Part shown: positions 1 to 15,342 of the stretch, piece after piece | How the letters are laid out: each line of letters begins with the position of its first letter | How positions within the stretch are numbered: position 1 is the first letter of the stretch | DNA from: an uncultured Pseudomonadales bacterium | Lineage (GTDB): Bacteria > Patescibacteriota > Microgenomatia > UBA1400 > UBA1396 | DNA length: 64,000 bases | Assembly: GCA_964511175.1 (NCBI GenBank) | Contig: CAZEEI010000002.1 | Location: 132,382 to 196,381, forward strand | Direction of reading: 5' to 3' | The notes under the pieces: generated by a model | What the model saw: only the letters and a program-made list of their open reading frames with translations | Databases searched by the model: none | Told to the model about the DNA's origin: nothing | Made by a program: the position numbers and the translations under genes

Positions 1-1231
1 TCTACAAACACTTAAAGGTTTTCGTGATTTTCTGCCGGCCGAAAAGTCGCGCCGCGATTGGGTACAGCGCCGCATTGTGGAAGTGTTTGAACGTAATGGC
101 TTTGCTCCCTTGGAAACGCCCACTCTCGAGTATAAAGAGACAATTATGGGTAAATATGGTGACGAGGCTGACCAATTGGTTTACCAGTTTACCGATAGGG
201 GTGGCCGGGAAATAGCCCTACGCTATGATCAAACGGTACCCACCGCGCGGGTGGTAGCCCAGTATAACCAGGAGTTGCCTTTCCCTTTCCGTCGTTACCA
301 AGTACAGCCGGTTTTTCGGGCAGACAAACCACAGAAGGGGCGTTACCGCGAATTTACCCAATGCGACATCGATATTTTTGGCAGCACTTCTCCGTTGGCC
401 GACGCTGAGATTTTAGCTACCACTTATTTTGCTTATAAAAATGTTGGTTTTCCGGAAGTGGTTTTGCGTTGTAACGATCGACAAGTATTGTTTGCAACGC
501 TGGAACCGCTGGCAACCGAGCAAGTGTCGGTGGCTTCCATAATTCAAACGGTCGACAAGTCAGATAAGCTCAGTGAAGCTGACGTCGCCGCGGAGTTGGT
601 GGCAAAGGGTCTCACTGCCGACCAAGCCAAGCGGGTCTTGGCCGACATCCAAGCCGCCGCACCCAGCGCTAATTTGCAGGCGATTCTTGATTTAGCGCAA
701 AACCTGGGTGTGCCGCGCGCCGCTCTCCAGTTTACCCCCACAATCGCGCGGGGCCTGGACTACTATACCGGTATGATTTTTGAAGTGACAATTCCTGGTT
801 TTACCGCTGGTTCGGTAGGTGGCGGCGGCCGTTACGACAACTTAATTGAATCACTGTCCGGTCTATCGATCGCCGCGGTAGGGATTGGCTTTGGTTTTGA
901 CCGCACCGTGGAAGCTGCTCAAGCTCTTGGTTTGACTCCCGAAGCGGCTACTACTACCGAAGTTTTGGTAACCGTTTTTGCGTCGGATTTAGTCGCTGAT
1001 TCGGCCGCTTTGACTGCCCAGTTGCGCCAAGAAGGAGTGAATGCTGAACTTTATCCCGGCACCGACAAACTGGCCAAACAGTTGCGCTATGCCAATAAGA
1101 AGGGGATTCCTTTTGTAGCCGTGTTGGGTCCAGACGAAAAAGAGCAAGATAAACTCCAACTCAAAGATTTGCGTTCGGGCGAGCAACGGATTGTGTCCGC
1201 CAGCGAAGTAGCGGTTATCGTGCGCACTTAA
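1..1231 (+). CDS. hisS: histidyl-tRNA synthetase (5' truncated at window edge)
   Basis: The open frame extends upstream to nt 2 (LQTLKGFRDFLPAEKSRRDWVQRRIVEVFERNG...), which is a classic HisRS N-terminal region. Class II aaRS motifs and a C-terminal anticodon-binding domain are present; the listed ORF 77..1231 is the GTG-internal part of it. Confidence 0.9.
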   Translation, partial: LQTLKGFRDFLPAEKSRRDWVQRRIVEVFERNGFAPLETPTLEYKETIMGKYGDEADQLVYQFTDRGGREIALRYDQTVPTARVVAQYNQELPFPFRRYQVQPVFRADKPQKGRYREFTQCDIDIFGSTSPLADAEILATTYFAYKNVGFPEVVLRCNDRQVLFATLEPLATEQVSVASIIQTVDKSDKLSEADVAAELVAKGLTADQAKRVLADIQAAAPSANLQAILDLAQNLGVPRAALQFTPTIARGLDYYTGMIFEVTIPGFTAGSVGGGGRYDNLIESLSGLSIAAVGIGFGFDRTVEAAQALGLTPEAATTTEVLVTVFASDLVADSAALTAQLRQEGVNAELYPGTDKLAKQLRYANKKGIPFVAVLGPDEKEQDKLQLKDLRSGEQRIVSASEVAVIVRT

Positions 1232-1250
1232 TTAGTGTTAGATTATACAC

Positions 1251-1592
1251 ATGGGAGAAACACTCGATTTCAGGAATCTTTTTCTACAAGAAGAAATAAA
1301 GAATGATGCCGGTGCTTGGCGGGTTCTTACGGAAATTGGCCAAGCCTTTGCTAACGATGCTTTTACTGCGGAAAAAACACCACGGGAATGGCTACAGTGG
1401 TTAATTAAAAATATTAGGCAGGACTGGGTCGATGCCCGTTCGAAAGGAGGGGATAAGGAAGAGTTTATTGCCGATTATGTAACCGAAATGGCGGAAAAAT
1501 TTTCCCGAGCGAAAGGACGCGTACCAGTCACCCGTGATTCTCTTGAGCTAGCGGTAAGAACGATTGTTTATCAGGTTCCTAAAACGAAATAG
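1251..1592 (+). CDS. hypothetical protein (113 aa)
   Basis: Intact ORF with protein-like composition and no motif I recognise. A TATACA -10-like hexamer sits immediately upstream of the ATG. Confidence 0.5.
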   Translation: MGETLDFRNLFLQEEIKNDAGAWRVLTEIGQAFANDAFTAEKTPREWLQWLIKNIRQDWVDARSKGGDKEEFIADYVTEMAEKFSRAKGRVPVTRDSLELAVRTIVYQVPKTK

Positions 1593-1916
1593 CTAGCGCT
1601 TACCTTCCCCGATTGGGGCACGTGCTTTCTTCATTGCGCGCTTCAGCTGTTTAACTTCTTTACCATAATCATCGGCAATAACGAAATTAACGAGGGCTAA
1701 CACCCGAATTAAACCACGCATGAAACGTACATCAATTCGCCTATTTCCTTCCGTTTCAGCAGTGTACGCCGCAAAAAGCCTGAGGAAATAGGAACCTTCA
1801 TTAAATGCCGCCAGCCTCTTTGGATTGATGCCTTCTACATCAGGATTCCTACTCATCAGACTAATCATTTCTCGCGATTTTTGTAAAGCTCTGAGCATAC
1901 CACTCCTTTCGATCAT
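1593..1916 (-). CDS. hypothetical protein (107 aa)
   Basis: ORF whose stop abuts the stop of the 1251..1592 gene with zero gap (convergent). Its start overlaps the upstream minus-strand gene by 4 nt, suggesting translational coupling. Confidence 0.5.
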   Translation of the reverse strand: MIERSGMLRALQKSREMISLMSRNPDVEGINPKRLAAFNEGSYFLRLFAAYTAETEGNRRIDVRFMRGLIRVLALVNFVIADDYGKEVKQLKRAMKKARAPIGEGKR

Positions 1917-2920
1917 GATACCCGATTTTTACGCCGAAGGTACTCCACCATTTTTTGTTCATCCGCTCGAATGGCGGCATATACCGCCGGTGGCAAAGAT
2001 TGGTTAGGATCTCTGGCCGCAAAACCAGGGGTACCACGGTGCGCCTGTAAGATAGAACGGTTAGCAAATACCACTGGATCAAAACCAAATTGCCACGCAA
2101 CCGTACCTTGGTCATCTCTAATCCCGGAAAAAACGGCAGCATAAGCTAATCCTTTAATCGCCATGCAGGGATTAAATTTACCTTTTTCGCTCGTTGATAG
2201 TGGCGCTTTACGTCGTGCCTCTAAAAGCCGAATCACTTCACTCATTGGTCTGACTGAAAGCGCTAGTTTGCGTAACTCTGCCTGTTCCTGAGGTTGTAAG
2301 TAAGGATGGCGAGCCAGATAGTCTTCAATGCGTTGCTGCCTGTTTTCTAGCGGTAATAACTGGTAACGACCATCTGCCGATTCGGCAAACGTATGATCGG
2401 CGGCGTTAACTTCGGTGAAGAAACATCTGGCGATATCATTGTAGGCTCGTTGGCTATCCGCGTGAATCCGGTGCAAAATATCGGGTAATTCTGGGTTCAT
2501 TAGAGTATTGATTCCCTGCACAAGGGCGTACGTCACTCGGTCGCCATCCGATACTCTGGTAAAGAGTGCTTGAAACTCTGGTGTATTTTCCAGTGAGGCA
2601 AAAACTTCATGCTGCAAAATGGTAGTAATCAGCTGGGCGCGTGGTTCGGATTCTACAACCCTTAATTCGGGGCGCCGGCGCACTTCGGAGTAGGGAATTT
2701 GTTGAGCCAGATCTTTAGCGGTATAGCCGATTATTTGGAGATGTAAGTTTCTTGGTTGGGAAGCGATAAATTTTTCTGGTTCGGTGCGTGAGTATTGCCA
2801 GCCAACCAATATTTCCTTGATATCCGGATTGGTTAAGTAATATTCGGCGGCGTTGGCAGCCGTGCTGAGCGCCGCGTGCAAAAGTTCCGCGGGTACGGTG
2901 GTGATTGTTGGGGGTGTCAC
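1913..2920 (-). CDS. hypothetical protein (335 aa), GTG start
   Basis: Long ORF with a globular-looking sequence. It shares a 4-nt overlap with the downstream gene. The start is a GTG and an in-frame TGA lies 9 codons upstream. Confidence 0.55.
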   Translation of the reverse strand: MTPPTITTVPAELLHAALSTAANAAEYYLTNPDIKEILVGWQYSRTEPEKFIASQPRNLHLQIIGYTAKDLAQQIPYSEVRRRPELRVVESEPRAQLITTILQHEVFASLENTPEFQALFTRVSDGDRVTYALVQGINTLMNPELPDILHRIHADSQRAYNDIARCFFTEVNAADHTFAESADGRYQLLPLENRQQRIEDYLARHPYLQPQEQAELRKLALSVRPMSEVIRLLEARRKAPLSTSEKGKFNPCMAIKGLAYAAVFSGIRDDQGTVAWQFGFDPVVFANRSILQAHRGTPGFAARDPNQSLPPAVYAAIRADEQKMVEYLRRKNRVS

Positions 2921-3140
2921 TTTTATCTTGTTTGTCTGGAATAACCATCATGTGATGCTCTGTACTCGGAAAGATATTCGGTTTTACTAATACATCACCA
3001 GACTGATGGGAAAAACGTACCAAATAGCTGGCTCTGGCATCTTCGATCAGAGAGGTGGGTTTACCGTTTGGAGGGTAGAGCGTATCCAAGGGAGCGCGGG
3101 CTACGGCGGTGAAAAGGATGGCTTTTTTTTCGGGAGACAT
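2715..3140 (-). CDS. hypothetical ORF; only the N-terminal ~73 codons (3140..2921) look coding; possible frameshifted fusion with 1913..2920
   Basis: The N-terminal part is protein-like. The C-terminal 68 codons overlap the 335-aa gene in another frame and are Arg-rich, which looks like off-frame translation. This suggests a +1 junction near 2920. Confidence 0.25.
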   Translation of the reverse strand: MSPEKKAILFTAVARAPLDTLYPPNGKPTSLIEDARASYLVRFSHQSGDVLVKPNIFPSTEHHMMVIPDKQDKSDTPNNHHRTRGTFARGAQHGCQRRRILLNQSGYQGNIGWLAILTHRTRKIYRFPTKKLTSPNNRLYR

Positions 3141-3152
3141 TGGTTAAAATTA

Positions 3153-3629
3153 CTAATCGAAGATGATTTTAGTTAAAAGGAGAGTAGTTTGACCGCGTTT
3201 GGCCAGATAAGTCTGATCCTCCGGTGATAAAACAAAATTTAGCCGAGGATAGGTGCCGTATTCCCGTAATAACTGGGAATCAAGTTGAGTAAATTGATAA
3301 ATTCGAACCTCAGAACAATTTATTTTAGAGACAGTCTTGGCTTGTGTTAGCTGTAATACACCGTATTGTTGGCCGGCGATTAATCCATCCCGTGGAGTGC
3401 AGCAAGTCATAAGCGGCCTATCTTCTGGTTTGTTGGTAAGCAATGCATCCAAATCCCTTTTGATAAGGGGCGGATCAGTGACTTCACCTGCGGCAAACCT
3501 AACCGGTTGGTAGGATTCGTGACGAGGCGTTATTAGGTGATATAGCGCCCTCTTACGATTGGCGCCATGATCCTGGTCAGGTGATTCTCCGCTTCTTAAT
3601 CTTTCGAAAGCTCTTTTTATAAAGGCCAT
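3153..3629 (-). CDS. hypothetical protein (158 aa)
   Basis: ORF directly downstream (same strand) of tRNA-Pro; no recognisable motifs. Confidence 0.5.
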   Translation of the reverse strand: MAFIKRAFERLRSGESPDQDHGANRKRALYHLITPRHESYQPVRFAAGEVTDPPLIKRDLDALLTNKPEDRPLMTCCTPRDGLIAGQQYGVLQLTQAKTVSKINCSEVRIYQFTQLDSQLLREYGTYPRLNFVLSPEDQTYLAKRGQTTLLLTKIIFD

Positions 3630-3666
3630 ACTATCTCCTTACGTTACGCCGGCATTGTAGCATTTG

Positions 3667-3740
3667 TCGGGAAGACTGGACTCGAACCAGCGACCTCGCG
3701 GTCCCAAACCGCGCGCTCTAGCCATCTGAGCTACTTCCCG
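3667..3740 (-). tRNA. tRNA-Pro (anticodon TGG)
   Basis: The reverse complement folds as a cloverleaf: acceptor CGGGAAG/CTTCCCG, D-arm GCTC..GAGC, anticodon stem CGCGG/CCGCG with loop TTTGGGA (anticodon TGG, G37), T-arm GCTGG TTCGAGT CCAGT, discriminator A. CCA is not encoded. Confidence 0.9.
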
Positions 3741-3756
3741 TATTAGGCTACCAGGT

Positions 3757-3764
3757 ATTATAAT
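3757..3764. promoter_or_regulatory. palindromic -10 element ATTATAAT, shared by divergent tRNA-Pro and the leaderless 3771 gene
   Basis: TATAAT reads identically on both strands. It lies 7 nt upstream of the ATG at 3771 and about 17 nt upstream of the tRNA 5' end on the minus strand. Confidence 0.35.
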
Positions 3765-3770
3765 CGGTCA

Positions 3771-4361
3771 ATGCAACTTTCCCAAGTCGACAATATTGAG
3801 TTCGCCCTTTTAGGTTGGTCGGACCTCGACCGGCTGACCAAAAAGCTTAGCCAGGCGGTTTTGGCCAGCGGGCATCATTACGACCGCCTCGTTCCTTTGG
3901 CGAACGGCGGTTTAACGATGGTTCGCCATCTGGCCGATCGATTGGGTTTGCTCACAATTTCAACCATGCAGGTGGCTTTGTACCGGGGTGTAAATGAGCG
4001 GCATTCTCAACCAAAAGTGATTCAACCGTTATCGGTTTCGGTCAAAGGGGAGTCAATTTTGATTGTGGAAGATATTGTGGATACCGGTGCAACCCTGGAA
4101 TATACGCTGGCCGAACTTAAGCGTTTAGGAGCTAAGGAGGTACATACCGCCGCACTGATCCGCAAGTCACACGCCAGCGTTTTGCCGGAGTATGCCGCCT
4201 TGTTATTGGATCGTTGGGTCATTTTTCCTTACGAAACCCGCGAAACTATTACTTATTTGGCCGCCCGCTGGCAGAAACAAGGTTTGACGTCGGCACAAAC
4301 TGCTATTAATTTGCAAAAGATTGGCTATGGTGCTGGCGAGATTAAGCGTTATGCCTGCTAG
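3771..4361 (+). CDS. purine phosphoribosyltransferase (Gpt/XGPRT-like type I PRTase)
   Basis: PRPP-binding motif ILIVEDIVDTGATL, an LANGG loop, and a C-terminal DRWVIFPYE like the Gpt W-x-x-PW-E tail. Confidence 0.75.
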   Translation: MQLSQVDNIEFALLGWSDLDRLTKKLSQAVLASGHHYDRLVPLANGGLTMVRHLADRLGLLTISTMQVALYRGVNERHSQPKVIQPLSVSVKGESILIVEDIVDTGATLEYTLAELKRLGAKEVHTAALIRKSHASVLPEYAALLLDRWVIFPYETRETITYLAARWQKQGLTSAQTAINLQKIGYGAGEIKRYAC

Positions 4362-4773
4362 AACAAAGCCCGCCAGAAAACTGACTTCATCCCTATTTTG
4401 GTTGGGCGTTTTTATTTTTTGGGTCATCTTCTTTTTTCCGCACTGGTACGTTTTGAGTTACACCAAAATTTGGGAATTAAAACAACTAATGGGGCGGTCG
4501 CGCGAACAACAAATGCGAATTTTACATCCGGCCGCTATGGCGCGGTTGTTAACTTTGCGGCAAGAATTGGGCGCCTACTCTGTACCGGAAGTGGTAGTGG
4601 TGCTGCCAACGGATTCCAGCAAATTGCCACTGGCGGGTAATGCGCCCATTTTGCGGTCGGTGCTGTATCCTTATGTAGTAGTGCCGACCGCCGTTGCTGG
4701 TCTGGTTAACGTTCGGTTGCGCGCTTGTGATTCACTGACCATCCCCGATCCTTGTTGGGAGATTACGCCATGA
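4351..4773 (+). CDS. small membrane-anchored hypothetical protein
   Basis: The ATG at 4351 overlaps the gpt-like stop by 11 nt. Hydrophobic N-terminal segment FWLGVFIFWVIFFF. The listed ORF began at an upstream TTG. Confidence 0.4.
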   Translation: MPARTKPARKLTSSLFWLGVFIFWVIFFFPHWYVLSYTKIWELKQLMGRSREQQMRILHPAAMARLLTLRQELGAYSVPEVVVVLPTDSSKLPLAGNAPILRSVLYPYVVVPTAVAGLVNVRLRACDSLTIPDPCWEITP

Positions 4774-6125
4774 TCATCACCTTGTACTGGTTAACGCTTT
4801 GGCTTTATCTGGGGCTGGCTTTGCTTTGGCGCTGGCGTGGCGCTTTGCACTTGCGTGATATTTCTCTGGCTTTGCCGCTCGGTTTGTCGGTTAATACTTT
4901 GGGTGGTCTTTTGCTTTGGCTGGGGGGCATTGATTTGGCAACCATCACGCGTTGGAGTCAGATAGGCTTGGTATTGGTGTTGACCTACGTTGTGAGTGAT
5001 CGTTTACCACTGCGTAGTTTTCCAGTGCGAGTTGGCTTTAACGATGTTTACCGGCGATCACAGCAAATAATCCACCAGTTGGTTAATTGGCCGCTAGCTT
5101 GGCTAGTAGGTATGGTGATCTTTTCCCTAGCAGTGGTCTTAATTTGGCAGGGGACAGTTGAGCCGGTAACTTGGGACAATCTCTCTCTTTATGACTGGCG
5201 CGCCCAGCGGCTAGCTCAAGGTTGGCAGGTGAGTGATTTTTTGGTGCAGTTTAATGATCAACCGTCTTGGGCGATGTATGACTTTTTACATCCTCTCCTA
5301 CCCTCCATTATCGGCGCTTTTGTTTACCAAAGTGGTGGTATTCGAGTGCCGCTGATTAGCGCGGTTCTACTACTATGTGTCTTAAGCGAAGTTGGCAAAA
5401 CCTGGCGATCTTGGGCTGCCAGAATAGTTTTTGGTGTTTTGTCACTGGGCTCACCTTTGTTTTTTAAGGCCGCAGTTGAGGGCTATGGCGTTTGGTGGGC
5501 CGTGCTATTTTGGTGGTTATTTTTCCTTTTCGTCTGGCGACATTCTTTACATTACCGCTGGGAGCAACTGGTGGCTGGATTTTTCTTAGCGGCGGCCGTG
5601 CAGTCGCGTTTAAGCGAGCCTTATTGGATTATCGTAGTTATTTGGTTGCTAGGTCGTTATCACTGGCTAACAACCCTACCGGTAATATTTTCTTTTGTTA
5701 ACTGGCAAGTGTTGGTACGTTTGGCCGCACGTTTTACCAGCGGCCAGGTAGTGCGTTCGACTTATAGTGCAACTTGGTTGACGGTGCTGTTGAGTAATTT
5801 ATCACCAACCTTGGTAGGTGTCCTCTTCATTGATGGTCTCCTGCACAATCCGGTTCTGCCCTATTTTTTGGGAGTAGGCTTACTGGCTTTCTGGTTGCGA
5901 CAAGCCCAGGCTTGGTCGGCGTCACTGCGTACCTGTTTGGTACTGATTATTAGTTGGGGCATTATTTTACTGGGGGGAATGGCCGCTTTTTGGGCGCGTA
6001 ATCCGTCTACTTGGTCGGAGGTAGTGTTGGCTTTGCCGCGCGCCGTTTTACCATTGGCCGCCCTCTGCGTGGTTTTTATTACAGCGGCAGTAGACCGATT
6101 ATTCGGATCTGAAGTCCAAGCCTAA
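4770..6125 (+). CDS. polytopic integral membrane protein (about 451 aa), possibly a glycan polymerase or membrane glycosyltransferase
   Basis: ATGA overlap with the previous gene. More than 10 predicted TM helices, rich in W/L/G. It sits at the head of the glycan locus. Confidence 0.6.
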   Translation: MIITLYWLTLWLYLGLALLWRWRGALHLRDISLALPLGLSVNTLGGLLLWLGGIDLATITRWSQIGLVLVLTYVVSDRLPLRSFPVRVGFNDVYRRSQQIIHQLVNWPLAWLVGMVIFSLAVVLIWQGTVEPVTWDNLSLYDWRAQRLAQGWQVSDFLVQFNDQPSWAMYDFLHPLLPSIIGAFVYQSGGIRVPLISAVLLLCVLSEVGKTWRSWAARIVFGVLSLGSPLFFKAAVEGYGVWWAVLFWWLFFLFVWRHSLHYRWEQLVAGFFLAAAVQSRLSEPYWIIVVIWLLGRYHWLTTLPVIFSFVNWQVLVRLAARFTSGQVVRSTYSATWLTVLLSNLSPTLVGVLFIDGLLHNPVLPYFLGVGLLAFWLRQAQAWSASLRTCLVLIISWGIILLGGMAAFWARNPSTWSEVVLALPRAVLPLAALCVVFITAAVDRLFGSEVQA

Positions 6126-6174
6126 TTAGCTGCTAACTTGCACCTTGATATTTATTTGGTAAACTGGCGCCAAG

Positions 6175-6516
6175 ATGTTTATCTTCCAGGTGGCCATGGC
6201 GCTCTTTGCTTTTTTTATGGTTTATGTTTTGCGCATCCATTATCGCCAGCATCATCTTGCGGCAACCGAGTTTGGTGCTTGGGTAATGATCTGGTTCGGT
6301 TTTGTGATGTTGGCTTTATTTCCGGGGACAATGCGCGGCATCGCCGACTCACTTCATATCGGTCGGGTTTTCGATTTACTAGTAATCATCGCCTTCATGA
6401 TTTTAGCGGTGGCCGTATTTTTCACGCGTCTAACCGTATTGGAACTGCGTCATAAATTTGAGCTGCTGATTCGTCGGGAAGCAATTACTCAGGCTATATT
6501 ACCGGAACAACGATGA
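6175..6516 (+). CDS. DUF2304-family small membrane protein
   Basis: About 113 aa with two or three TM segments and the ...GIADSLHIGRVFDLL... core typical of DUF2304. It overlaps the GT2 gene start, which is the usual DUF2304-GT2 pairing. Confidence 0.7.
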   Translation: MFIFQVAMALFAFFMVYVLRIHYRQHHLAATEFGAWVMIWFGFVMLALFPGTMRGIADSLHIGRVFDLLVIIAFMILAVAVFFTRLTVLELRHKFELLIRREAITQAILPEQR

Positions 6517-7295
6517 AACTTCCCCGTATTTCGCTAATTACACCCAGCTATAACCAAGGCCGGTTTATCCGCCAAACTATCGACAGTGTACTAAAACAAA
6601 ATTATCCAGGTTTGGAATACTGGGTACAGGATGGTGGCTCCAGCGACGAGACACTAGAGGTTCTACGTTCCTATGGTTCTCGGGTGCAATGGGTTAGCCG
6701 CTGTGACCGCGGCCAAACCGATGCTATTAATCAGGGAATTAAGCAAACTAAGGGTGATATCGTGGGTTATCTTAACGCCGACGATCTACTTTTGCCCAAC
6801 GCGTTGTGGCGGGTGGCAATGGCTTTCACTCAGAACCCAACAGCCCAGTGGTTAACCGGCGACTACCGGATTATCAATGAAAATCAGCGTTTGATTGAAC
6901 AACCGCTGGTGGTTTATAAACAATGGCAGCGGCAGTTAGGTAAAACTTGGCCTCGCTGGTGGCCGGTTATTTTAGGGTTTAATAATCCGTTAGCGCAGCC
7001 CAGCACTTTTTGGCGCCGCTTGGTTCACCAGCGACTTGGCTATCTGGACGAGTCCTATCATTACGTTATGGATTACGATTGGTGGTGGCGGTTACTAAAA
7101 TTAGGATCGCCGCTGGTTCTTACGGAAGCACTGAGTGCTTTTCGGGTTCACGCTCAATCCAAAGGCGGCCAATATTTTCGCCGCCAATTCGCCGAACAAG
7201 AACAATGTGCGGCCAAACATGGTGTACCAGATATGATTCGCCGCGCCCAAGCTTGGCATAATCAATTAATTTGTGCCGTTTATGCGCGCCGGTAA
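6513..7295 (+). CDS. glycosyltransferase family 2
   Basis: N-terminal ISLITPSYNQGRFI...QDGGSSDET...DAINQG...NADD, the GT-A DXD fold signature. Confidence 0.85.
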   Translation: MKLPRISLITPSYNQGRFIRQTIDSVLKQNYPGLEYWVQDGGSSDETLEVLRSYGSRVQWVSRCDRGQTDAINQGIKQTKGDIVGYLNADDLLLPNALWRVAMAFTQNPTAQWLTGDYRIINENQRLIEQPLVVYKQWQRQLGKTWPRWWPVILGFNNPLAQPSTFWRRLVHQRLGYLDESYHYVMDYDWWWRLLKLGSPLVLTEALSAFRVHAQSKGGQYFRRQFAEQEQCAAKHGVPDMIRRAQAWHNQLICAVYARR

Positions 7296-8221
7296 GCGGC
7301 AATGGTTCGTTTCAGTCCAAGTTCAAAAGGCGTTTTAGCCTGGAAACCAAAAGCTTGCTGGGCGCGGGAAGGGTCTACCTGTCGCTGGGGTTGGCCGTCC
7401 GGGCGACTGGTGTCAAAAACCAAACGTCCGGTATAACCCACTAGTCTAGCAATGGTTTGGGCTAGATCAGAAATAGTAATGGCGTGATTGGCGCCAAGAT
7501 TAACCGGTTGAGGGTTGTTATAGTGCTGCACGGCTAAAGCAATGCCACGTGCAGCATCGGCCACATAAAGAAATTCGCGAGTAGCGCGGCCAGTGCCCCA
7601 AATGGTCACACTGGGTTGAGACTGTTGTTTAGCCTCCGCCAATTTACGGATTAAAGCTGGAATAACGTGCGAGTTTTGGGGATCAGACTTATCGCCTGGT
7701 CCATAAATATTGGTCGGCAAGAGATAAATAAAATTAAGGCCATATTGTGTTCGCGCCGCTTGCCCGTGTACCAACAACATTTTTTTAGCTAAGCCATAGG
7801 CGGCGTTAGTTTCTTCCGGATAACCACTCCACAAATCATCTTCGCGAAAGGGTACGGGTGTAAATTTGGGATAAGCGCAAATTGTGCCAATACCAATAAA
7901 TTTGCTAACTTTAGCCAAACGAGCCGCTTCAACTAAATGACTGCCCATAAGGATATTGTCATAGAACAAATCGGCCGGATAAAGCTGGTTATAGCCAATA
8001 CCACCCACATTCGCCGCCAGGTGGATGACTAGATCAACGCCGTCGACCGCGGCCTGACAAGCCGCAAATTGGCGCAAATCATATTTTTGCGAAGTAGGTA
8101 ATCGTAATTCCCGAGGGTGTAGTGAACGCAGTAATTTAACCAGGTGCTGGCCCAAGAAACCATGGCCACCCGTGACCAAGACGCGTTGTTTTTGCCAATA
8201 CCGAGATGACAGGGCGAACAT
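7280..8221 (-). CDS. fcl: GDP-L-fucose synthase (GDP-4-keto-6-deoxymannose 3,5-epimerase/4-reductase)
   Basis: Rossmann motif VLVTGGHGFLG, plus YPADLFYDN, NSHVIPALIRK and WGTGRATREFLYVAD, which closely parallel the E. coli Fcl motifs. Confidence 0.8.
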   Translation of the reverse strand: MFALSSRYWQKQRVLVTGGHGFLGQHLVKLLRSLHPRELRLPTSQKYDLRQFAACQAAVDGVDLVIHLAANVGGIGYNQLYPADLFYDNILMGSHLVEAARLAKVSKFIGIGTICAYPKFTPVPFREDDLWSGYPEETNAAYGLAKKMLLVHGQAARTQYGLNFIYLLPTNIYGPGDKSDPQNSHVIPALIRKLAEAKQQSQPSVTIWGTGRATREFLYVADAARGIALAVQHYNNPQPVNLGANHAITISDLAQTIARLVGYTGRLVFDTSRPDGQPQRQVDPSRAQQAFGFQAKTPFELGLKRTIAAYRRA

Positions 8222-8256
8222 TGGGTATTAGTATACTGCTCAACAGGAAAATTAAT

Positions 8257-8988
8257 ATGTCTTTACGTGCTAACCAGCCGGATGGCCGACAACACTACTT
8301 AACCAGTCAATACGATTCGCGTTTGCAGTGGTTGTCTTATTGGGAGCAGATTGAAGCGGTATGCCGCTTTCTGCCCCAAAAGCGGGGGCGTATTTTAGAG
8401 ATAGGTCCAGGTAACAGGACAGTATCTGGTTATCTGCGTAAAGAAGGCTATCACGTTACCACGGTTGATGCCGATCCCGTTCTTCAACCAGATGTGGTGG
8501 CGGATGTCACCACCTTACCTAATTTGGGCAATTTTGATTTGGTACTTTGCTGTCAGGTTTTAGAGCACCTACCGTTTTCTGAGTTTGAGACCGCTCTCAG
8601 CAACTTGGCCAGGATGCTGCGGCCGGGTGGTCGTTTGATTCTCAGCTTGCCTTATTCTTGTTTCTACTTAACCTGGAGCTGGAGTTGGTTCTACGCCAGT
8701 ATTTTTCGACCCTTATACCAAATGTTAGGCTGGGAGCCATTGGCCTCCCAAACCATCCAGTTGCGTATTCCTTGGTTTTTCTTACGTCATCCTTCAACTA
8801 AGGCGCACTTTTGGGAGGTGGGTCAACGGGGTTACTCCAAGGCGCTTGTTCGTCGTAAGTTAAGCCGCTATTTTATTTGGCGTTACGAAAAACACCAACC
8901 GCTTTATCCTTACCATTGGTACTTGATAGCCGATAAATCGCGGCCGATAAAAACAGATTGGGATCGGAATTGGTTATGGCTGGGTTAA
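8257..8988 (+). CDS. class I SAM-dependent methyltransferase
   Basis: Motif I ILEIGPGNRTVSGYL, an acidic motif II (TTVDAD), and the post-I VLEHL. Confidence 0.7.
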   Translation: MSLRANQPDGRQHYLTSQYDSRLQWLSYWEQIEAVCRFLPQKRGRILEIGPGNRTVSGYLRKEGYHVTTVDADPVLQPDVVADVTTLPNLGNFDLVLCCQVLEHLPFSEFETALSNLARMLRPGGRLILSLPYSCFYLTWSWSWFYASIFRPLYQMLGWEPLASQTIQLRIPWFFLRHPSTKAHFWEVGQRGYSKALVRRKLSRYFIWRYEKHQPLYPYHWYLIADKSRPIKTDWDRNWLWLG

Positions 8989-10067
8989 CGATCGGTCTCA
9001 ATCTTTTATATTTACTACCTAACCAAGTGGGCGGGACTGAATATTATGCCCGTTTTCTTATCGAGGAATTACAGCGTCTGGATCAAAAGAACCGCTACGT
9101 AATATTTTGTAACCGGGAAAATTGGTCAACATTCCAGTTAACCAATCCTCGCTGGCAGAAAGTGCGCTGCCCTGTTTTTGCCCGCTGGCGTCCCGGGCGC
9201 GTTTTATTTGAACAGTTAATTTTGCCTGGGCTGCTGCGTAAATTTCACATCGACCGACTTCACTCGTTGGGTTATGTGGGATTGCTTTTTACCAATTGCC
9301 CGCAAATAGTAACTATCCATGACGCCAATTGGCGCGACCAACTGGCCGATTTTCCGTTTTTTTCCTTATGGCTCCAGCGCTGGCTGATTGAGGCTAGTCT
9401 GGCCAAAGCGTGCTTAATTTTAACCGACTCCAATTTTGCTAAGCAGCGTTTAGTGTTTCATTTTCCTCAATACGCGGCCAAACTACGGGTTTTATCACCA
9501 GGATTATCGCCGGGGTGGTTGACCATTCTAAATCGATCATCACGGGAGAGGGCGTTAATTAAAAAACCTTATCTTTTGGTAGTGTCAGCGTTTTATCCTC
9601 ATAAACGAATCGATTATGTTTTGCGGCTTTGGTCCAAATTGGCTAACCGCTTGCCACAATACCAATTGGTAGTGGTTGGACAAAATGGTTGTCAAGCGTC
9701 GCTGATTAAGTATTGGTCGGCGCATTTACCGCGGGTGATCTATAAAGCCAAGGTTTCTGCAACCGATTTAGCCGCACTTTATCGCCATGCCGCCGTTTTA
9801 TTACACCCTAGTATTTATGAGGGTTTTGGCTATCCAGTTTATGAAGCGGCACAAGTTGGTTTACCAATTGTGGTGGGGTATCGTGACCTTTATGACTCAC
9901 GATTAGCGCCGCGCTTAATAGAATTAAGTTTTAATAATCAGATCGATATCGATTTGATTGTAAGATTAGCCAAACAGGCTAAGCGAAAGTCTGCTCCAAA
10001 ATGGTTGTCTACTCAACATCGGCGCGCTGTGGCTCAACTGATTCGCTGGTATCAGGAATTGGAATGA
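8976..10067 (+). CDS. glycosyltransferase family 1 (GT4-type, GT-B)
   Basis: The C-terminal half has LLVVSAFYPHKRIDYVL...LHPSIYEGFGYPVYEA...GLPIV, the EX7E GT4 signature. Confidence 0.8.
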   Translation: MAGLTIGLNLLYLLPNQVGGTEYYARFLIEELQRLDQKNRYVIFCNRENWSTFQLTNPRWQKVRCPVFARWRPGRVLFEQLILPGLLRKFHIDRLHSLGYVGLLFTNCPQIVTIHDANWRDQLADFPFFSLWLQRWLIEASLAKACLILTDSNFAKQRLVFHFPQYAAKLRVLSPGLSPGWLTILNRSSRERALIKKPYLLVVSAFYPHKRIDYVLRLWSKLANRLPQYQLVVVGQNGCQASLIKYWSAHLPRVIYKAKVSATDLAALYRHAAVLLHPSIYEGFGYPVYEAAQVGLPIVVGYRDLYDSRLAPRLIELSFNNQIDIDLIVRLAKQAKRKSAPKWLSTQHRRAVAQLIRWYQELE

Positions 10068-10074
10068 GGTAGCG

Positions 10075-11172
10075 ATGATTTTGCTGTTAGATAATATTCC
10101 TACACCAGCCACAACGCACCGTTACAACGCTCTTAACCGGGTGTTGGATGGTCAATTAATGGTTTGGTATCAACGTTATTGCGAACCAAATCGTTCTTGG
10201 CGTGTAGTGCCTCAACCACAGTTTCCAACTGTTGTTTTAGGTCAGAGTTGGGGCGCAACTTTTTGGTCGCTGTTTGGCCAACTCAATCGTCAGAAGACGC
10301 AAATCGACGCGGTCATTATCCGAGGTTGGAACACCTTTAGTTATCTCTATGCGGTGGCTTGGTGTCGTTATTACCGTGTACCGCTGGTTCTCTGGTCAGG
10401 CAGCACGTCTTGGGAGAGGCACTGGCTGCGTTTGCCGGTAGCCCCGATTGTACGCTGGGTGGTTGGCAGTGCATCTAGTTATCTAGCCTATGGCAGCCGC
10501 GCGCGGGCCTATCTAATTAGTTTGGGTGCTGACCCCGCCAAAGTACGGATTTTCTGGAACTCAGTTGATTTAGCCCACTTCGCCCGCGCGCGCCGTCTTC
10601 AGCCAGCCGCCGCCCGCCAGCAATTAAAACTCCCTAGCCATAAACGAATTATCCTTTTTGTTGGCCAACTAATCGAACGAAAAAACATTTTATCTTTGGT
10701 TTCTGCCTTCAATCGAGTCAGCCGCTGTTATCCGCAATTACATTTAGTAGTCGCGGGGGTCGGTCCTTTGACTTCACAAATTGAGCCAAGTTCGAATCTA
10801 ACTTTACTAGGGCATCAGGAGTATCGCCAATTACCATTGCTCTATGCCGCCGCTGATGTATTAATTCTGCCATCATGTGAGGAAGTTTGGGGTTTAGTAG
10901 TTAATGAAGCCATGGCTGCCGGTTTGCCTTGTGCGGTTTCGGTAACAGCCGGTGTGGCCGCTGATCTAGTCATACCCGGCAAAACCGGCTGGCGCTTACT
11001 TCCCACGCCGTTTGGTATCGAGTTAGTTCTGCGACAGATCGCTAAAGCTAGTTTTCGGGAATTAAAACTCTTAGGAAATCAGGCGGCTAAACAGGTAAGT
11101 TTAACTGACGCCAACGTTACCGCACGGCGTCTATTTACATGGCAAAACCAGCATAAGAAACGCGGGGAATGA
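10075..11172 (+). CDS. glycosyltransferase family 1 (GT4-type)
   Basis: ILFVGQLIERKNI...LILPSCEEVWGLVVNEAMAAGLP, an EX7E motif. Confidence 0.8.
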   Translation: MILLLDNIPTPATTHRYNALNRVLDGQLMVWYQRYCEPNRSWRVVPQPQFPTVVLGQSWGATFWSLFGQLNRQKTQIDAVIIRGWNTFSYLYAVAWCRYYRVPLVLWSGSTSWERHWLRLPVAPIVRWVVGSASSYLAYGSRARAYLISLGADPAKVRIFWNSVDLAHFARARRLQPAAARQQLKLPSHKRIILFVGQLIERKNILSLVSAFNRVSRCYPQLHLVVAGVGPLTSQIEPSSNLTLLGHQEYRQLPLLYAAADVLILPSCEEVWGLVVNEAMAAGLPCAVSVTAGVAADLVIPGKTGWRLLPTPFGIELVLRQIAKASFRELKLLGNQAAKQVSLTDANVTARRLFTWQNQHKKRGE

Positions 11173-14052: not shown

Positions 14053-15342
14053 ATGTGGCAGCGTTTTAATCGACTACGAGCTTTAGTTTTGGGTTCCGGT
14101 GCCCTGCGTCAGTCGGCGATTGCGGCCAGCGGTAATGTTATTACCGGTCTAATTTCGGCAGTGGCTATTATTTTGGCTTCCCGCTTACTTGGGCCAACCG
14201 AGTTTGGCGTTTTTTCCGTAGCGACATCCTTGATTGCTATTGGCAGTAAACTGGGCGATGTAGGCCTCAACGCCGTGATTACCCGTTTTTTGCCGCGTTG
14301 GCAGGGTGATCGAACCAAAGCGCGACAATTGCTAAGGCACATTATTTTTTGGAAAACAATCTTGGCTGGCATCGGACTAGGTTTGGTTTTATTGTGTCAA
14401 CAGCCACTGAGTGATTTGCTTAATTACCATCATCCAACGATGTGGTTTTGGGTAGCGTTTGGTTCTTTAGTTTTAATTTTATTCGAACATACCCTCATTG
14501 TGGCGGCCGCATTGCATGAATTTGTTTGGGCCAGCGTAGTGAATATTACCCAGGCGCTTTTCAAAGTAATTAGTTTTGTTTGGCTGGGGATATGTGGTGT
14601 TTACTCCACTGGGTGGCTGACGTTTATTTATGCTTTAGCGCCGGTAACGGGAGTATTACTGGTTCTGCGTCGCTTCCAACCATGGCTGCTGGTTAAGCCG
14701 GCTTATCTCGGGCAGCGATGGCAGAAGATGATCCAGCGCTACGCTGGGCACGCCGCTGTGGGTGTAACGGCTACAACACTCATTGCTAATATTGATCTCC
14801 TGTTTGTGCAGAAATATCTTTCACCCCTGGATACCGGGGTTTATGCGGGGGCCTCTCGAATCGCTCTGTTTGTGGCTTTTGTAGCGGCGGCGGTGGGAAC
14901 AGTCTTAAATAATCGGGTAGCGCGTTATCAAGCGCGGGAAACCCAAGCTTTATATCTAAAGAAATCACTAGTAGTGGTGCTAATTGCCATACTGGGTTTT
15001 CTCTGCTTTTTACCATTGGCTCGCTTGGCTTTGGTTTTAACTATTGGGCCGGAATATTTGCCTGGCTTGCCGGCCCTGATTGTTTTGGTGGCCAATGCTT
15101 TTTTGGGGTTGGCGGTGGTGCCGTACATCTCCTTTTTTTACGCTCTCGATATTCCTTATTATTTTTCTTTGGGCGGCATTCTCCAAATGGTGGTCATTGG
15201 GCTGGTGAGTTGGTGGGGATTACCTCAATATGGCCTAATGGCGGCGGCGTACGCACGATTGCTGGCGACAGTGGTTTTTGTGGTTTATACCACAGGCATG
15301 ATTTGGTTTACCTGGGGAAACCGCCAATCCGTTGAGCATTAA
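14053..15342 (+). CDS. polysaccharide biosynthesis flippase (Wzx / MOP superfamily)
   Basis: About 12 TM helices with the organisation and N-terminal pattern typical of Wzx and PF01943 proteins. Confidence 0.75.
   Translation: MWQRFNRLRALVLGSGALRQSAIAASGNVITGLISAVAIILASRLLGPTEFGVFSVATSLIAIGSKLGDVGLNAVITRFLPRWQGDRTKARQLLRHIIFWKTILAGIGLGLVLLCQQPLSDLLNYHHPTMWFWVAFGSLVLILFEHTLIVAAALHEFVWASVVNITQALFKVISFVWLGICGVYSTGWLTFIYALAPVTGVLLVLRRFQPWLLVKPAYLGQRWQKMIQRYAGHAAVGVTATTLIANIDLLFVQKYLSPLDTGVYAGASRIALFVAFVAAAVGTVLNNRVARYQARETQALYLKKSLVVVLIAILGFLCFLPLARLALVLTIGPEYLPGLPALIVLVANAFLGLAVVPYISFFYALDIPYYFSLGGILQMVVIGLVSWWGLPQYGLMAAAYARLLATVVFVVYTTGMIWFTWGNRQSVEH

Follow-up and report, generated by a model that had tools for sequence, protein, structure and literature searches.

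Histidine triad (HIT) proteins are recognised by the motif H-phi-H-phi-H-phi-phi, in which the central histidine is the nucleophile, and the GalT-type branch by two HIT-like half-domains per chain together with an H-x-H-x-Q/H active site. GalT itself carries glutamine at the third motif position. The closest described counterparts of the gene family considered here are the Ap4A phosphorylase Rv2613c of Mycobacterium tuberculosis (3ano) and the HIT-domain protein 6af2, which share only 13% identity with it. Both are ~190–220 aa long, whereas members of the family reach ~400 aa and alone possess a ~260-aa extension. The first histidine of the triad in Rv2613c and 6af2 is Asn or Thr in the family, and the copy described below further differs from them by Gln in place of the third histidine and by a frameshift.

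Members of the GalT branch, including E. coli GalT (1hxq/1gup), the uridylyltransferase 6k5z, Arabidopsis ADP-glucose phosphorylase (1z84) and yeast Apa2 (4i5t), have no detectable sequence similarity to the family; TM-scores are low (0.2–0.3), and no Pfam GalT model matches it. CWF19-like proteins (6id0_U, 8ro1), which also contain HIT-like domains, resemble the family only at the level of the fold and are eukaryotic spliceosome disassembly factors with no functional parallel in bacteria.

Genomic islands associated with tRNA genes provide a second point of comparison. Like such islands, the block of genes studied here immediately follows the 3′-end of a tRNA gene and differs in content from one relative. 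An integrase, a direct repeat of the tRNA 3′-end and genes of mobile elements are all missing from the block, however, and its GC composition is not shifted. We read the block, with a probability of roughly 0.6, as lineage-specific filler in the genome of a Microgenomates-type member of the Patescibacteria (CPR), comprising one disrupted HIT-like gene and no functional multi-gene system. The HIT-like gene would have been broken by a 1-nt insertion in a run of C, in addition to a His-to-Gln substitution at the otherwise invariant second histidine of its motif. Such a reading removes a candidate novel system and puts a concrete annotation in its place, namely that the 73-aa and 335-aa open reading frames (ORFs) make up a single disrupted gene, which belongs to an unnamed family of the HIT superfamily that is very rare in public data.

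Organization of the block

The block is located in a 64-kb stretch of DNA, hereafter the window, and is flanked on one side by hisS (TIGR00442, 3.4e-107) and on the other by a phosphoribosyltransferase (PRTase) gene. The top-listed relatives of this hisS are overwhelmingly from metagenome-assembled genomes of Patescibacteria/Microgenomates. The flanking genes had been named hisS and gpt in an earlier, purely sequence-based reading of the window (the original prediction); the former name holds, but the PRTase falls short of the cut-off in all specific NCBIfam models, which leaves the latter name unconfirmed. The features are as follows.

1251–1592, plus strand: 113-aa ORF running convergently towards the minus-strand genes; normal codon usage, no Shine-Dalgarno sequence
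1593–1916, minus strand: 107-aa ORF; a start at ATG 1898 (101 aa), with AAAGGAG 5 nt upstream, is more likely
1913–2920, minus strand: 335-aa ORF with a GTG start, predicted to be the 3′ portion of the split HIT-like gene and to encode the remaining HIT domain and the extension
2723–2749, minus strand: histidine-triad-type motif N-L-H-L-Q-I-I-G-Y (alignment A3)
2910–2914, minus strand: putative frameshift site, a run of five C (C5; G5 on the plus strand), from three-frame translation and comparison with homologues
2915–3140, minus strand: predicted 5′ portion of the split gene in frame A, from N-terminal alignment to P0002, P0003, and P0004
3153–3629, minus strand: 158-aa ORF with AAGGAG, a strong Shine-Dalgarno sequence, 5 nt upstream of its ATG
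3666–3740, minus strand: tRNA-Pro with anticodon UGG (ARAGORN; Rfam tRNA, 65.6 bits)
3757–3785, minus strand: promoter-like site TTGGGA-17-TATAAT (10/12) upstream of tRNA-Pro, from a consensus scan

The ORFs of 158, 335, 107, and 113 aa lie at the positions and on the strands given in the original prediction, which was also right in placing the tRNA-Pro gene beside the block and in having the stop codons of the 113- and 107-aa ORFs abut without any spacing. A gap of 36 nt separates tRNA-Pro from the 158-aa ORF, which lies downstream on the same strand. Non-overlapping ORFs tile the block, its GC content (0.462) does not deviate from that of the window (0.443), and no Rfam family other than the tRNA was found in it. 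The site at 3757–3785 is suggestive of a promoter for tRNA-Pro; promoter-like sites are no more numerous in the region than expected from shuffled sequence in the consensus scan. No terminator-like site was found between tRNA-Pro and the downstream ORFs. The 158- and 101-aa ORFs probably belong to one transcription unit with tRNA-Pro, while the 113-aa ORF is probably read through from hisS. A glycosyltransferase/epimerase cluster begins 1.1 kb beyond the block, within the window.

A split HIT-like gene

Five uncharacterised genes had been counted in the block. The number is four, as the 73-aa and 335-aa ORFs are, judging from their sequences, the two halves of one ~408-aa gene separated by a 1-nt frameshift at the C5 run. 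The 73-aa fragment (MSPEKK...EHHMMVIPDKQDKSDT) makes up codons 1–73 of an ORF of 141 aa (2715–3140) and contains the first conserved HIT-type element, HxxxVIPD. In tblastn searches, this 5′ segment matched locus L002 with 48% identity (E 2e-15) and also L083. Its codon score in its own frame is normal (0.224), whereas the tail of the 141-aa ORF scores 0.003 bits/codon in its own frame and 0.195 in that of the 335-aa ORF. This lack of a coding signal in the tail supports the split-gene reading. The 335-aa ORF, which has a normal coding signal and a start without a Shine-Dalgarno sequence, encodes the remainder of the HIT domain followed by a ~260-aa helical and beta extension. Conservation reaches 80% or more in 26 family columns of the 3′ part, and the window copy matches 24 of them.

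Up to the C5 run, the conserved D-T-P is read in frame A; T-I-T-T-V-P-A-E-L-L beyond the run is in the +1 frame, and the removal of one C from the run results in a continuous reading frame of ~408 aa. Comparison with homologue DNA and protein shows K-x-D-T/M-P at this position, and three homologues, 392–409 aa in length, each cover 96–97% of the fused sequence. Since full-length homologues span both halves, the two ORFs can be taken as one gene.

None of the proteins had originally been credited with an assignable motif. This was wrong for the split gene, in which the HIT-superfamily motifs HHMMVIPD and NLHLQIIGY are present. By fold and motif, the gene appears to belong to a rare, unnamed family of the HIT superfamily that is GalT/Ap4A-phosphorylase-like. 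The family motif is N/T-phi-H-phi-H-phi-phi, with the first histidine of the triad absent and the central and third histidines present in 24/24 relatives. The window copy (N-L-H-L-Q-I-I) keeps the central histidine, which is the first of the motif, invariant in the family and H126 in P0002, and has Gln where 24/24 other members have the third, H128 in P0002. The profile and fold searches that had been suggested as a check gave a HIT-like fold for this gene and an unusable single-sequence AF2 model (pLDDT 30.6) for the 158-aa protein. The HIT alpha+beta fold is present, and the AF2 model (pLDDT 90.7, pTM 0.91) has GalT-type uridylyltransferases as its best Foldseek matches. Searched against the PDB, the family profile matched 6af2 (E 0.0018) and the Ap4A phosphorylase 3ano (E 0.008), and the motifs lined up, NLHVHVV of the family falling on HLHVHVV of both proteins. 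Pfam HIT was matched in 7/25 members and DcpS_C in 2/25, all below threshold; the gathering score of Pfam HIT (PF01230) or its clan was not reached, since the best listed score was 15.4 bits and the cut-off is 21.5. The family is not represented in Pfam, NCBIfam, PHROGs, or PADLOC. It comprises 45 representatives at E ≤ 1e-3 among 1.84 billion sequences, about 24 of which are full length (380–455 aa). A scan of genome contigs with the 335-aa ORF found no relatives, and a literature search found no mention of HIT proteins in Patescibacteria, nor of the sequencing run SRR8925802.

The split gene is most likely a recently inactivated copy or one that is polymorphic in the population. Alternatively, the frameshift could have arisen in sequencing or assembly or represent a minority allele, in which case the ~408-aa gene would be intact and functional and its Gln variant would represent a GalT-like H-x-Q site. 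The shift does fall in a homopolymer, codon scores are normal in both halves, and the conserved family residues are kept apart from the frameshift and two substitutions; with 24/26 conserved columns and a GalT-like Gln, the window copy may still be functional. A 5-base run is, however, short for systematic error. The Logan assembly of SRR8925802, produced by an independent assembler but possibly from the same reads, is 100% identical over 3719 bases, and the replacement of a histidine found in every other member is a second sign of relaxed constraint. We consider an artefact or minority allele unlikely.

Far less probable still is a programmed +1 frameshift, whereby peptidyl-tRNA-Pro(UGG) would slip from CCC to CCA in ACC-CCC-A and yield the full-length enzyme, its expression being coupled to the adjacent and possibly co-transcribed tRNA-Pro(UGG). 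In E. coli, the pairing of the UGG isoacceptor with CCC is weak, and +1/+2 slips readily occur on CCC-C (PMC4519876), which would favour such a mechanism. The same strand carries the tRNA-Pro(UGG) gene 750 nt upstream, the shift needed is exactly +1 at CCC-A, and the resulting product matches the homologues. In 46 ordinary ORFs of the window, however, in-frame CCC-A occurs 77 times and an in-frame C5 run ending in CCC occurs 11 times, so the motif is not special. Elements that might stimulate slippage, for instance an A-site codon that is rare or a stop, or a Shine-Dalgarno-like sequence upstream, are not apparent either, and the position is unshifted in every homologue examined.

Genomic context and possible role of the family

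NTP_transferase, CDP-OH_P_transf, and Aminotran_5 genes are found near the family gene in L002 and in the P0003 contig, and in a rearranged order in L085, while rmlA-D-like genes are found near the family member of L088. Because the family gene stands beside sugar-1-phosphate nucleotidylyltransferase genes in other lineages, a nucleotide-sugar or CDP-alcohol role is likely, and fold, motif, and neighbourhood together point to metabolism of this kind for the cell envelope. The enzyme would work like those of the GalT/ADP-glucose phosphorylase/Ap4A phosphorylase branch, as its fold and motif suggest. The invariant histidine of N-L-H-x-H would attack the alpha-phosphate of an NDP-linked substrate to form a covalent nucleotidyl-His intermediate, which could then be resolved by phosphate or by a sugar or alcohol phosphate. 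The repeated occurrence of nucleotidylyltransferase and CDP-alcohol phosphatidyltransferase neighbours provides a testable idea, that of an NDP-sugar or CDP-alcohol phosphorylase/transferase, in bacteria for which little is understood of envelope biosynthesis or nucleotide salvage.

A bolder combination, to which we give very little credence, is that the ~400-aa N-x-H-x-H proteins form a new family of the GalT/Ap4A-phosphorylase branch for nucleotide-sugar/CDP-alcohol salvage or interconversion in CPR envelope synthesis, and that the window gene is alive through +1 slippage of tRNA-Pro(UGG) at CCC-CCA, co-transcribed with tRNA-Pro and with its expression tied to the tRNA gene.

Comparison with related loci

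Only one syntenic relative was found, L005, which shares hisS (65% identical), the same tRNA-Pro, the PRTase (47%), and the same membrane protein. Its tRNA-Pro has four differences from that of the window, which make up two compensatory stem pairs, and is otherwise identical; similarity between the two loci stops 5 nt past the 3′-end of the tRNA. Between hisS and tRNA-Pro, L005 carries uracil-PRTase-like (upp) and 3-methyladenine-glycosylase-like genes, of which no remnants were found in the window. L003 has a hisS that is 67% identical, yet it shows zero synteny. The GTDB species-representative collection yielded no genome of the same genus or species for comparison. The content of the slot is variable, and at the distance of L005 this is ordinary gene flux, as differing gene content is expected anyway in a comparator so distant.

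The original prediction had favoured an accessory or novel system inserted at tRNA-Pro. On such a reading, four or five co-directional and tightly packed genes would act together, for instance as a horizontally acquired defence or toxin-type module. Consistent with this, the genes share the strand of tRNA-Pro and trail it at short distances, no terminator being predicted in between, the family member of L084 lies among toxin-antitoxin modules, the slot differs in L005, and the 158-aa ORF has atypical codon usage. The difference in the slot concerns a single, distant syntenic relative, and none of the other block ORFs has odd codon usage. No ORF of 1251–3629 has a Pfam, NCBIfam, or PHROG match to an integrase or recombinase, and no suitable direct repeat occurs within 1000–4500, in agreement with the earlier observation that neither an integrase nor a direct repeat is visible. 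The possibility of a flanking copy of the tRNA-Pro 3′-end had been raised as well; this 22-nt sequence occurs once in the 64-kb window with up to three mismatches allowed. Searches of PHROGs, viral contigs, and phage and plasmid collections (including DNA searches) returned no significant match, and no PADLOC defence-system model matched except SspF at 14.3 bits. GC content is not deviant, and the central gene is frameshifted.

Comparison of gene neighbourhoods, which had likewise been suggested, bears out the variability of the slot relative to L005 but not a system, since block genes were found near hisS in 0/80 loci of related Patescibacteria. The 158-, 101-, and 113-aa genes never co-occur with the HIT-like gene in L002, L083, L084, or the 80 related hisS loci, and the contexts of family members, elsewhere metabolic or unrelated, differ from one another, all of which argues against a system. 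What stands of the original prediction is the unconserved slot content; the insertion itself we regard as quite improbable.

Small open reading frames

The 335-aa and last minus-strand ORFs had been described as joined by a 4-nt overlap. The ATGA shared by the stop of the former and the start of the 107-aa ORF does exist in the sequence, but the gene more likely starts at ATG 1898, as in the gene call of the Logan contig, leaving a 15-nt gap. Its 101-aa product is predicted to be helical and forms a singleton cluster, with no relatives in the 80 related loci or in viral and metagenome scans sensitive to close relatives. The sole library match of the 107-aa ORF, to part of PADLOC SspF (E 0.0024, 14.3 bits), was taken as noise. 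The 113-aa protein is also a singleton cluster, has no relatives in the same loci or scans (close relatives only), and gave only noise-level library matches. A toxin-antitoxin reading of the 101- and 113-aa pair was rejected, as the genes are convergent and no known family was matched.

The 158-aa protein matched only itself among 5.8 billion proteins, in a search that sees relatives sharing exact 5-residue words, and had no Pfam, NCBIfam, PHROG, PADLOC, or PDB match. PDB sequence searches with all three small proteins gave nothing significant. Orphan status is firm for the 158-aa protein only, the other two having been searched by close-relative methods.

All the proteins had been judged protein-like. 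The coding signal is normal for the 113-, 73-, and 335-aa ORFs and lowish for the 101-aa ORF (0.129), but that of the 158-aa ORF, at 0.073 bits/codon, lies below the minimum of 41 reference ORFs (0.089) and does not exceed that of one antisense frame. One or more of the orphan ORFs, most of all that of 158 aa, could therefore have arisen by chance or be left over from genes that decayed, in a region that is degrading and where the neighbouring gene is disrupted as well; the lack of homologues and a non-foldable single-sequence model of the 158-aa protein point the same way. The strong and well-spaced Shine-Dalgarno sequence before this ORF speaks for a gene, as do the tiling of the block by non-overlapping ORFs, the absence of any trace of sequence similarity to upp or the glycosylase gene of L005, and the fact that the own frame is the best of six for the 101- and 113-aa ORFs (the latter scoring 0.251). 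A non-genic origin has an appreciable chance, although we hold it to be the less likely explanation by some way. As lineage-specific genes, the three orphans have nothing that marks them out and join the large pool of such genes in CPR bacteria.

Gene layout between hisS and tRNA-Pro

The ORFs between hisS and tRNA-Pro(UGG) lie at the positions given in the original prediction, which took them for five uncharacterised genes:

1251–1592, plus strand, 113-aa ORF
1593–1916, minus strand, 107-aa ORF
1913–2920, minus strand, 335-aa ORF with a GTG start
2715–3140, 141-aa ORF, in a different frame from the 335-aa ORF
3153–3629, minus strand, 158-aa ORF, downstream of tRNA-Pro
3666–3740, minus strand, tRNA-Pro(UGG)

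The interval separating the 158-aa from the 335-aa ORF is taken up by the first 73 codons of the 141-aa ORF, and the ends of the 113-aa and 107-aa ORFs coincide exactly. For the last minus-strand gene, ATG 1898 is the better-supported start, as it is preceded by AAAGGAG and is also called on a Logan contig covering the window start. With this start (101 aa), a 15-nt gap replaces the 4-nt overlap previously described after the 335-aa ORF. Of the two core genes proposed as flanks, hisS is found upstream of the block (TIGR00442, E 3.4e-107), while the identity of gpt is not demonstrable because the phosphoribosyltransferase (PRTase)-domain gene past tRNA-Pro scores under the cut-off of all specific NCBIfam models. 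The hisS gene is intact and not truncated; its start lies ~8 nt outside the window, and it encodes 412 aa on the Logan contig, versus 384 aa in the window (positions 1–76) when an internal GTG is taken as the start.

A single gene with an apparent frameshift

The count of five genes was too high, since full-length homologues span both the 73-aa and the 335-aa ORFs, which together form a single gene. When the two pieces were joined and searched among 5.8 billion proteins, only three relatives were found besides the query itself. These are 392–409 aa long, and each covers 96–97% of the joined query, the 73-aa part included. The frame offset between the pieces is +1. In the homologues' conserved register, K-x-D-T/M-P ... 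V-P-x-x-L-L, the upstream frame encodes up to D-T-P and the downstream frame continues from T-I-T-T-V-P, which places the shift in a run of five Cs (2910–2914, minus strand). With one C fewer in this run, the reading frame would be uninterrupted over ~408 aa. Past its first 73 codons, the 141-aa ORF lacks a coding signal in its own frame (0.003 bits/codon, versus 0.195 in that of the 335-aa ORF).

The Logan contig (SRR8925802), an independent assembly, is 100% identical to the window across 3719 bases, including the C5 run, so the shift cannot be put down to a single assembler. This contig comprises window positions 1–3719 plus 128 nt upstream and stops inside tRNA-Pro, likely through branching of the assembly graph at a tRNA sequence common to several community members. 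On the plus strand of the window, runs of five or more Gs outnumber those of Cs nearly fourfold (34 versus 9). Programmed +1 frameshifting, in which tRNA-Pro(UGG) slips from CCC to CCA and the full-length product is restored, is mechanistically conceivable (PMC4519876), but we regard it as very improbable: 46 ordinary ORFs of the window contain 77 in-frame instances of CCC-A, and the frameshift is absent from all homologues examined.

Assignment to the HIT superfamily

Neither piece of the split gene is recognised by Pfam, NCBIfam, PHROG, or PADLOC. When 1.84 billion representative proteins were searched exhaustively with a profile, 45 relatives were recovered at E ≤ 1e-3, about 24 of them full length (380–455 aa). 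The 25-sequence family alignment contains one invariant His and the motif N/T-phi-H-phi-H-phi-phi, in which a second His, two residues on, is present in all 24 other members. The split gene therefore does carry a motif, of HIT type, where none had been recognised.

Several lines of evidence place the family in the HIT superfamily. Its profile matches two HIT proteins of solved structure, 6af2 at E 0.0018 and 3ano, the Ap4A phosphorylase of M. tuberculosis, at E 0.008, aligning NLHVHVV on HLHVHVV with an upstream HxLVxPD element also in register. Pfam HIT or DcpS_C matches, all sub-threshold, fall at the same position in 9 of 25 members. The AlphaFold2 model of the full-length homologue P0002, built from the family alignment, is confident (pLDDT 90.7, pTM 0.91), and its top Foldseek matches are GalT-type uridylyltransferases at marginal E-values of about 1e-3. 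Two-domain enzymes align over 164–186 residues versus at most 135 for single-domain HIT proteins, so the C-terminal extension probably includes a counterpart to the second half-domain of GalT-branch enzymes. The family is rare and undescribed, yet lies within a well-known superfamily and mechanism.

The window copy retains 24 of 26 columns of ≥80% conservation in its 335-aa part and every such column in its 73-aa part. However, it reads NLHLQIIGY (2723–2749), with Gln at the second motif His. GalT uses H-x-H-x-Q, a precedent for Gln at that position, and the window copy could be a functional variant. Frameshift and His-to-Gln change, as two independent lesions at critical places, nevertheless suggest recent inactivation, and the window copy is probably a decaying family member.

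Three orphan ORFs

The 158-aa ORF has a strong Shine-Dalgarno sequence, but its codon score is lower than those of all 41 reference ORFs. Its protein matches only itself among 5.8 billion proteins and nothing in Pfam, NCBIfam, PHROG, PADLOC, or PDB, and its single-sequence AF2 model was unfoldable. The 101/107-aa protein and the 113-aa protein each fall in a singleton cluster, with no relatives in viral/metagenome scans or 80 related loci by methods that detect close relatives only.

Comparison with related loci

Relatives of hisS (best identity 67%) place the genome among Microgenomates-type Patescibacteria. The block is not universally conserved: its genes are absent within 10 kb of hisS in all 80 related loci, and the neighbourhood differs in the one syntenic locus, L005 (hisS 65% identical). 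There the order is hisS, a uracil-PRTase-like gene (plus), a 3-methyladenine-glycosylase-like gene (minus), tRNA-Pro(UGG), PRTase (47% identical), and a membrane protein. Because L005 holds other genes there, the content of the hisS/tRNA-Pro slot is variable. Such turnover is unremarkable at this evolutionary distance, as the closest hisS relative (L003) has zero synteny with the window.

In the comparison of window 3630–3740 with L005 7020–7130, the tRNA-Pro(UGG) genes are nearly identical, their four differing positions being two compensatory stem pairs. Similarity stops 5 nt past the tRNA 3′ end, where L005 has a hairpin and T-run and the window goes directly on to the 158-aa ORF's ribosome-binding site. 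The window has no hairpin or T-run here; a TACAAT box and the Shine-Dalgarno sequence of that ORF are present instead.

The original prediction, mostly right as an observation apart from gene count and motif, had proposed an inserted accessory or novel system, which is not supported. As it had noted, no integrase or direct repeat is visible: profile searches (Pfam, NCBIfam, PHROG) found no integrase in the block ORFs (1251–3629), and the 22-nt tRNA-Pro 3′ end has no second copy, at up to 3 mismatches, in the 64-kb window. GC content is not deviant (0.462 versus 0.443 for the window), and no phage, plasmid, or defence signatures were found with PHROG, PADLOC, or viral, phage, and plasmid collections. 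The block consists of the probably decaying HIT-superfamily gene plus three orphans.

Genomic context and proposed mechanism of the family

Three loci with family members have informative neighbourhoods:

L002, 3404–7513, HIT-like gene between an Aminotran_5 gene and CDP-OH_P_transf and NTP_transferase genes, as on the contig of the homologue P0003
L085, 2029–7809 (protein 35% identical), the same three gene types near the HIT-like gene, arranged differently
L088, 549–7445, a third lineage, HIT-like gene flanked by DegT-type aminotransferase, epimerase, and rmlA-D-like genes

These recurring neighbours suggest that the family has a conserved functional connection with nucleotide-sugar or CDP-alcohol metabolism and support a substrate of either kind, although no such association is seen in three other contexts (L083, L084, and L087). 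The proposed mechanism is analogous to that of HIT transferases and phosphorylases: an NDP-linked substrate would be attacked at its alpha-phosphate by the invariant His, and the resulting nucleotidyl-His intermediate would be resolved by phosphate or by a sugar or alcohol carrying a phosphate. Family members are reasonable candidates for enzymology.

In the window, a glycosyltransferase/epimerase/flippase cluster starts 1.1 kb past the block. This polysaccharide or glycosylation cluster, just past the PRTase gene (4752–11172 and 14053–15342), encodes a multi-pass membrane protein of 457 aa that matches no Pfam family, DUF2304, GT2, an NAD-dependent epimerase/dehydratase, a methyltransferase, two GT4 proteins, and a Polysacc_synt flippase, with signal peptidase and tyrS genes scattered among them.
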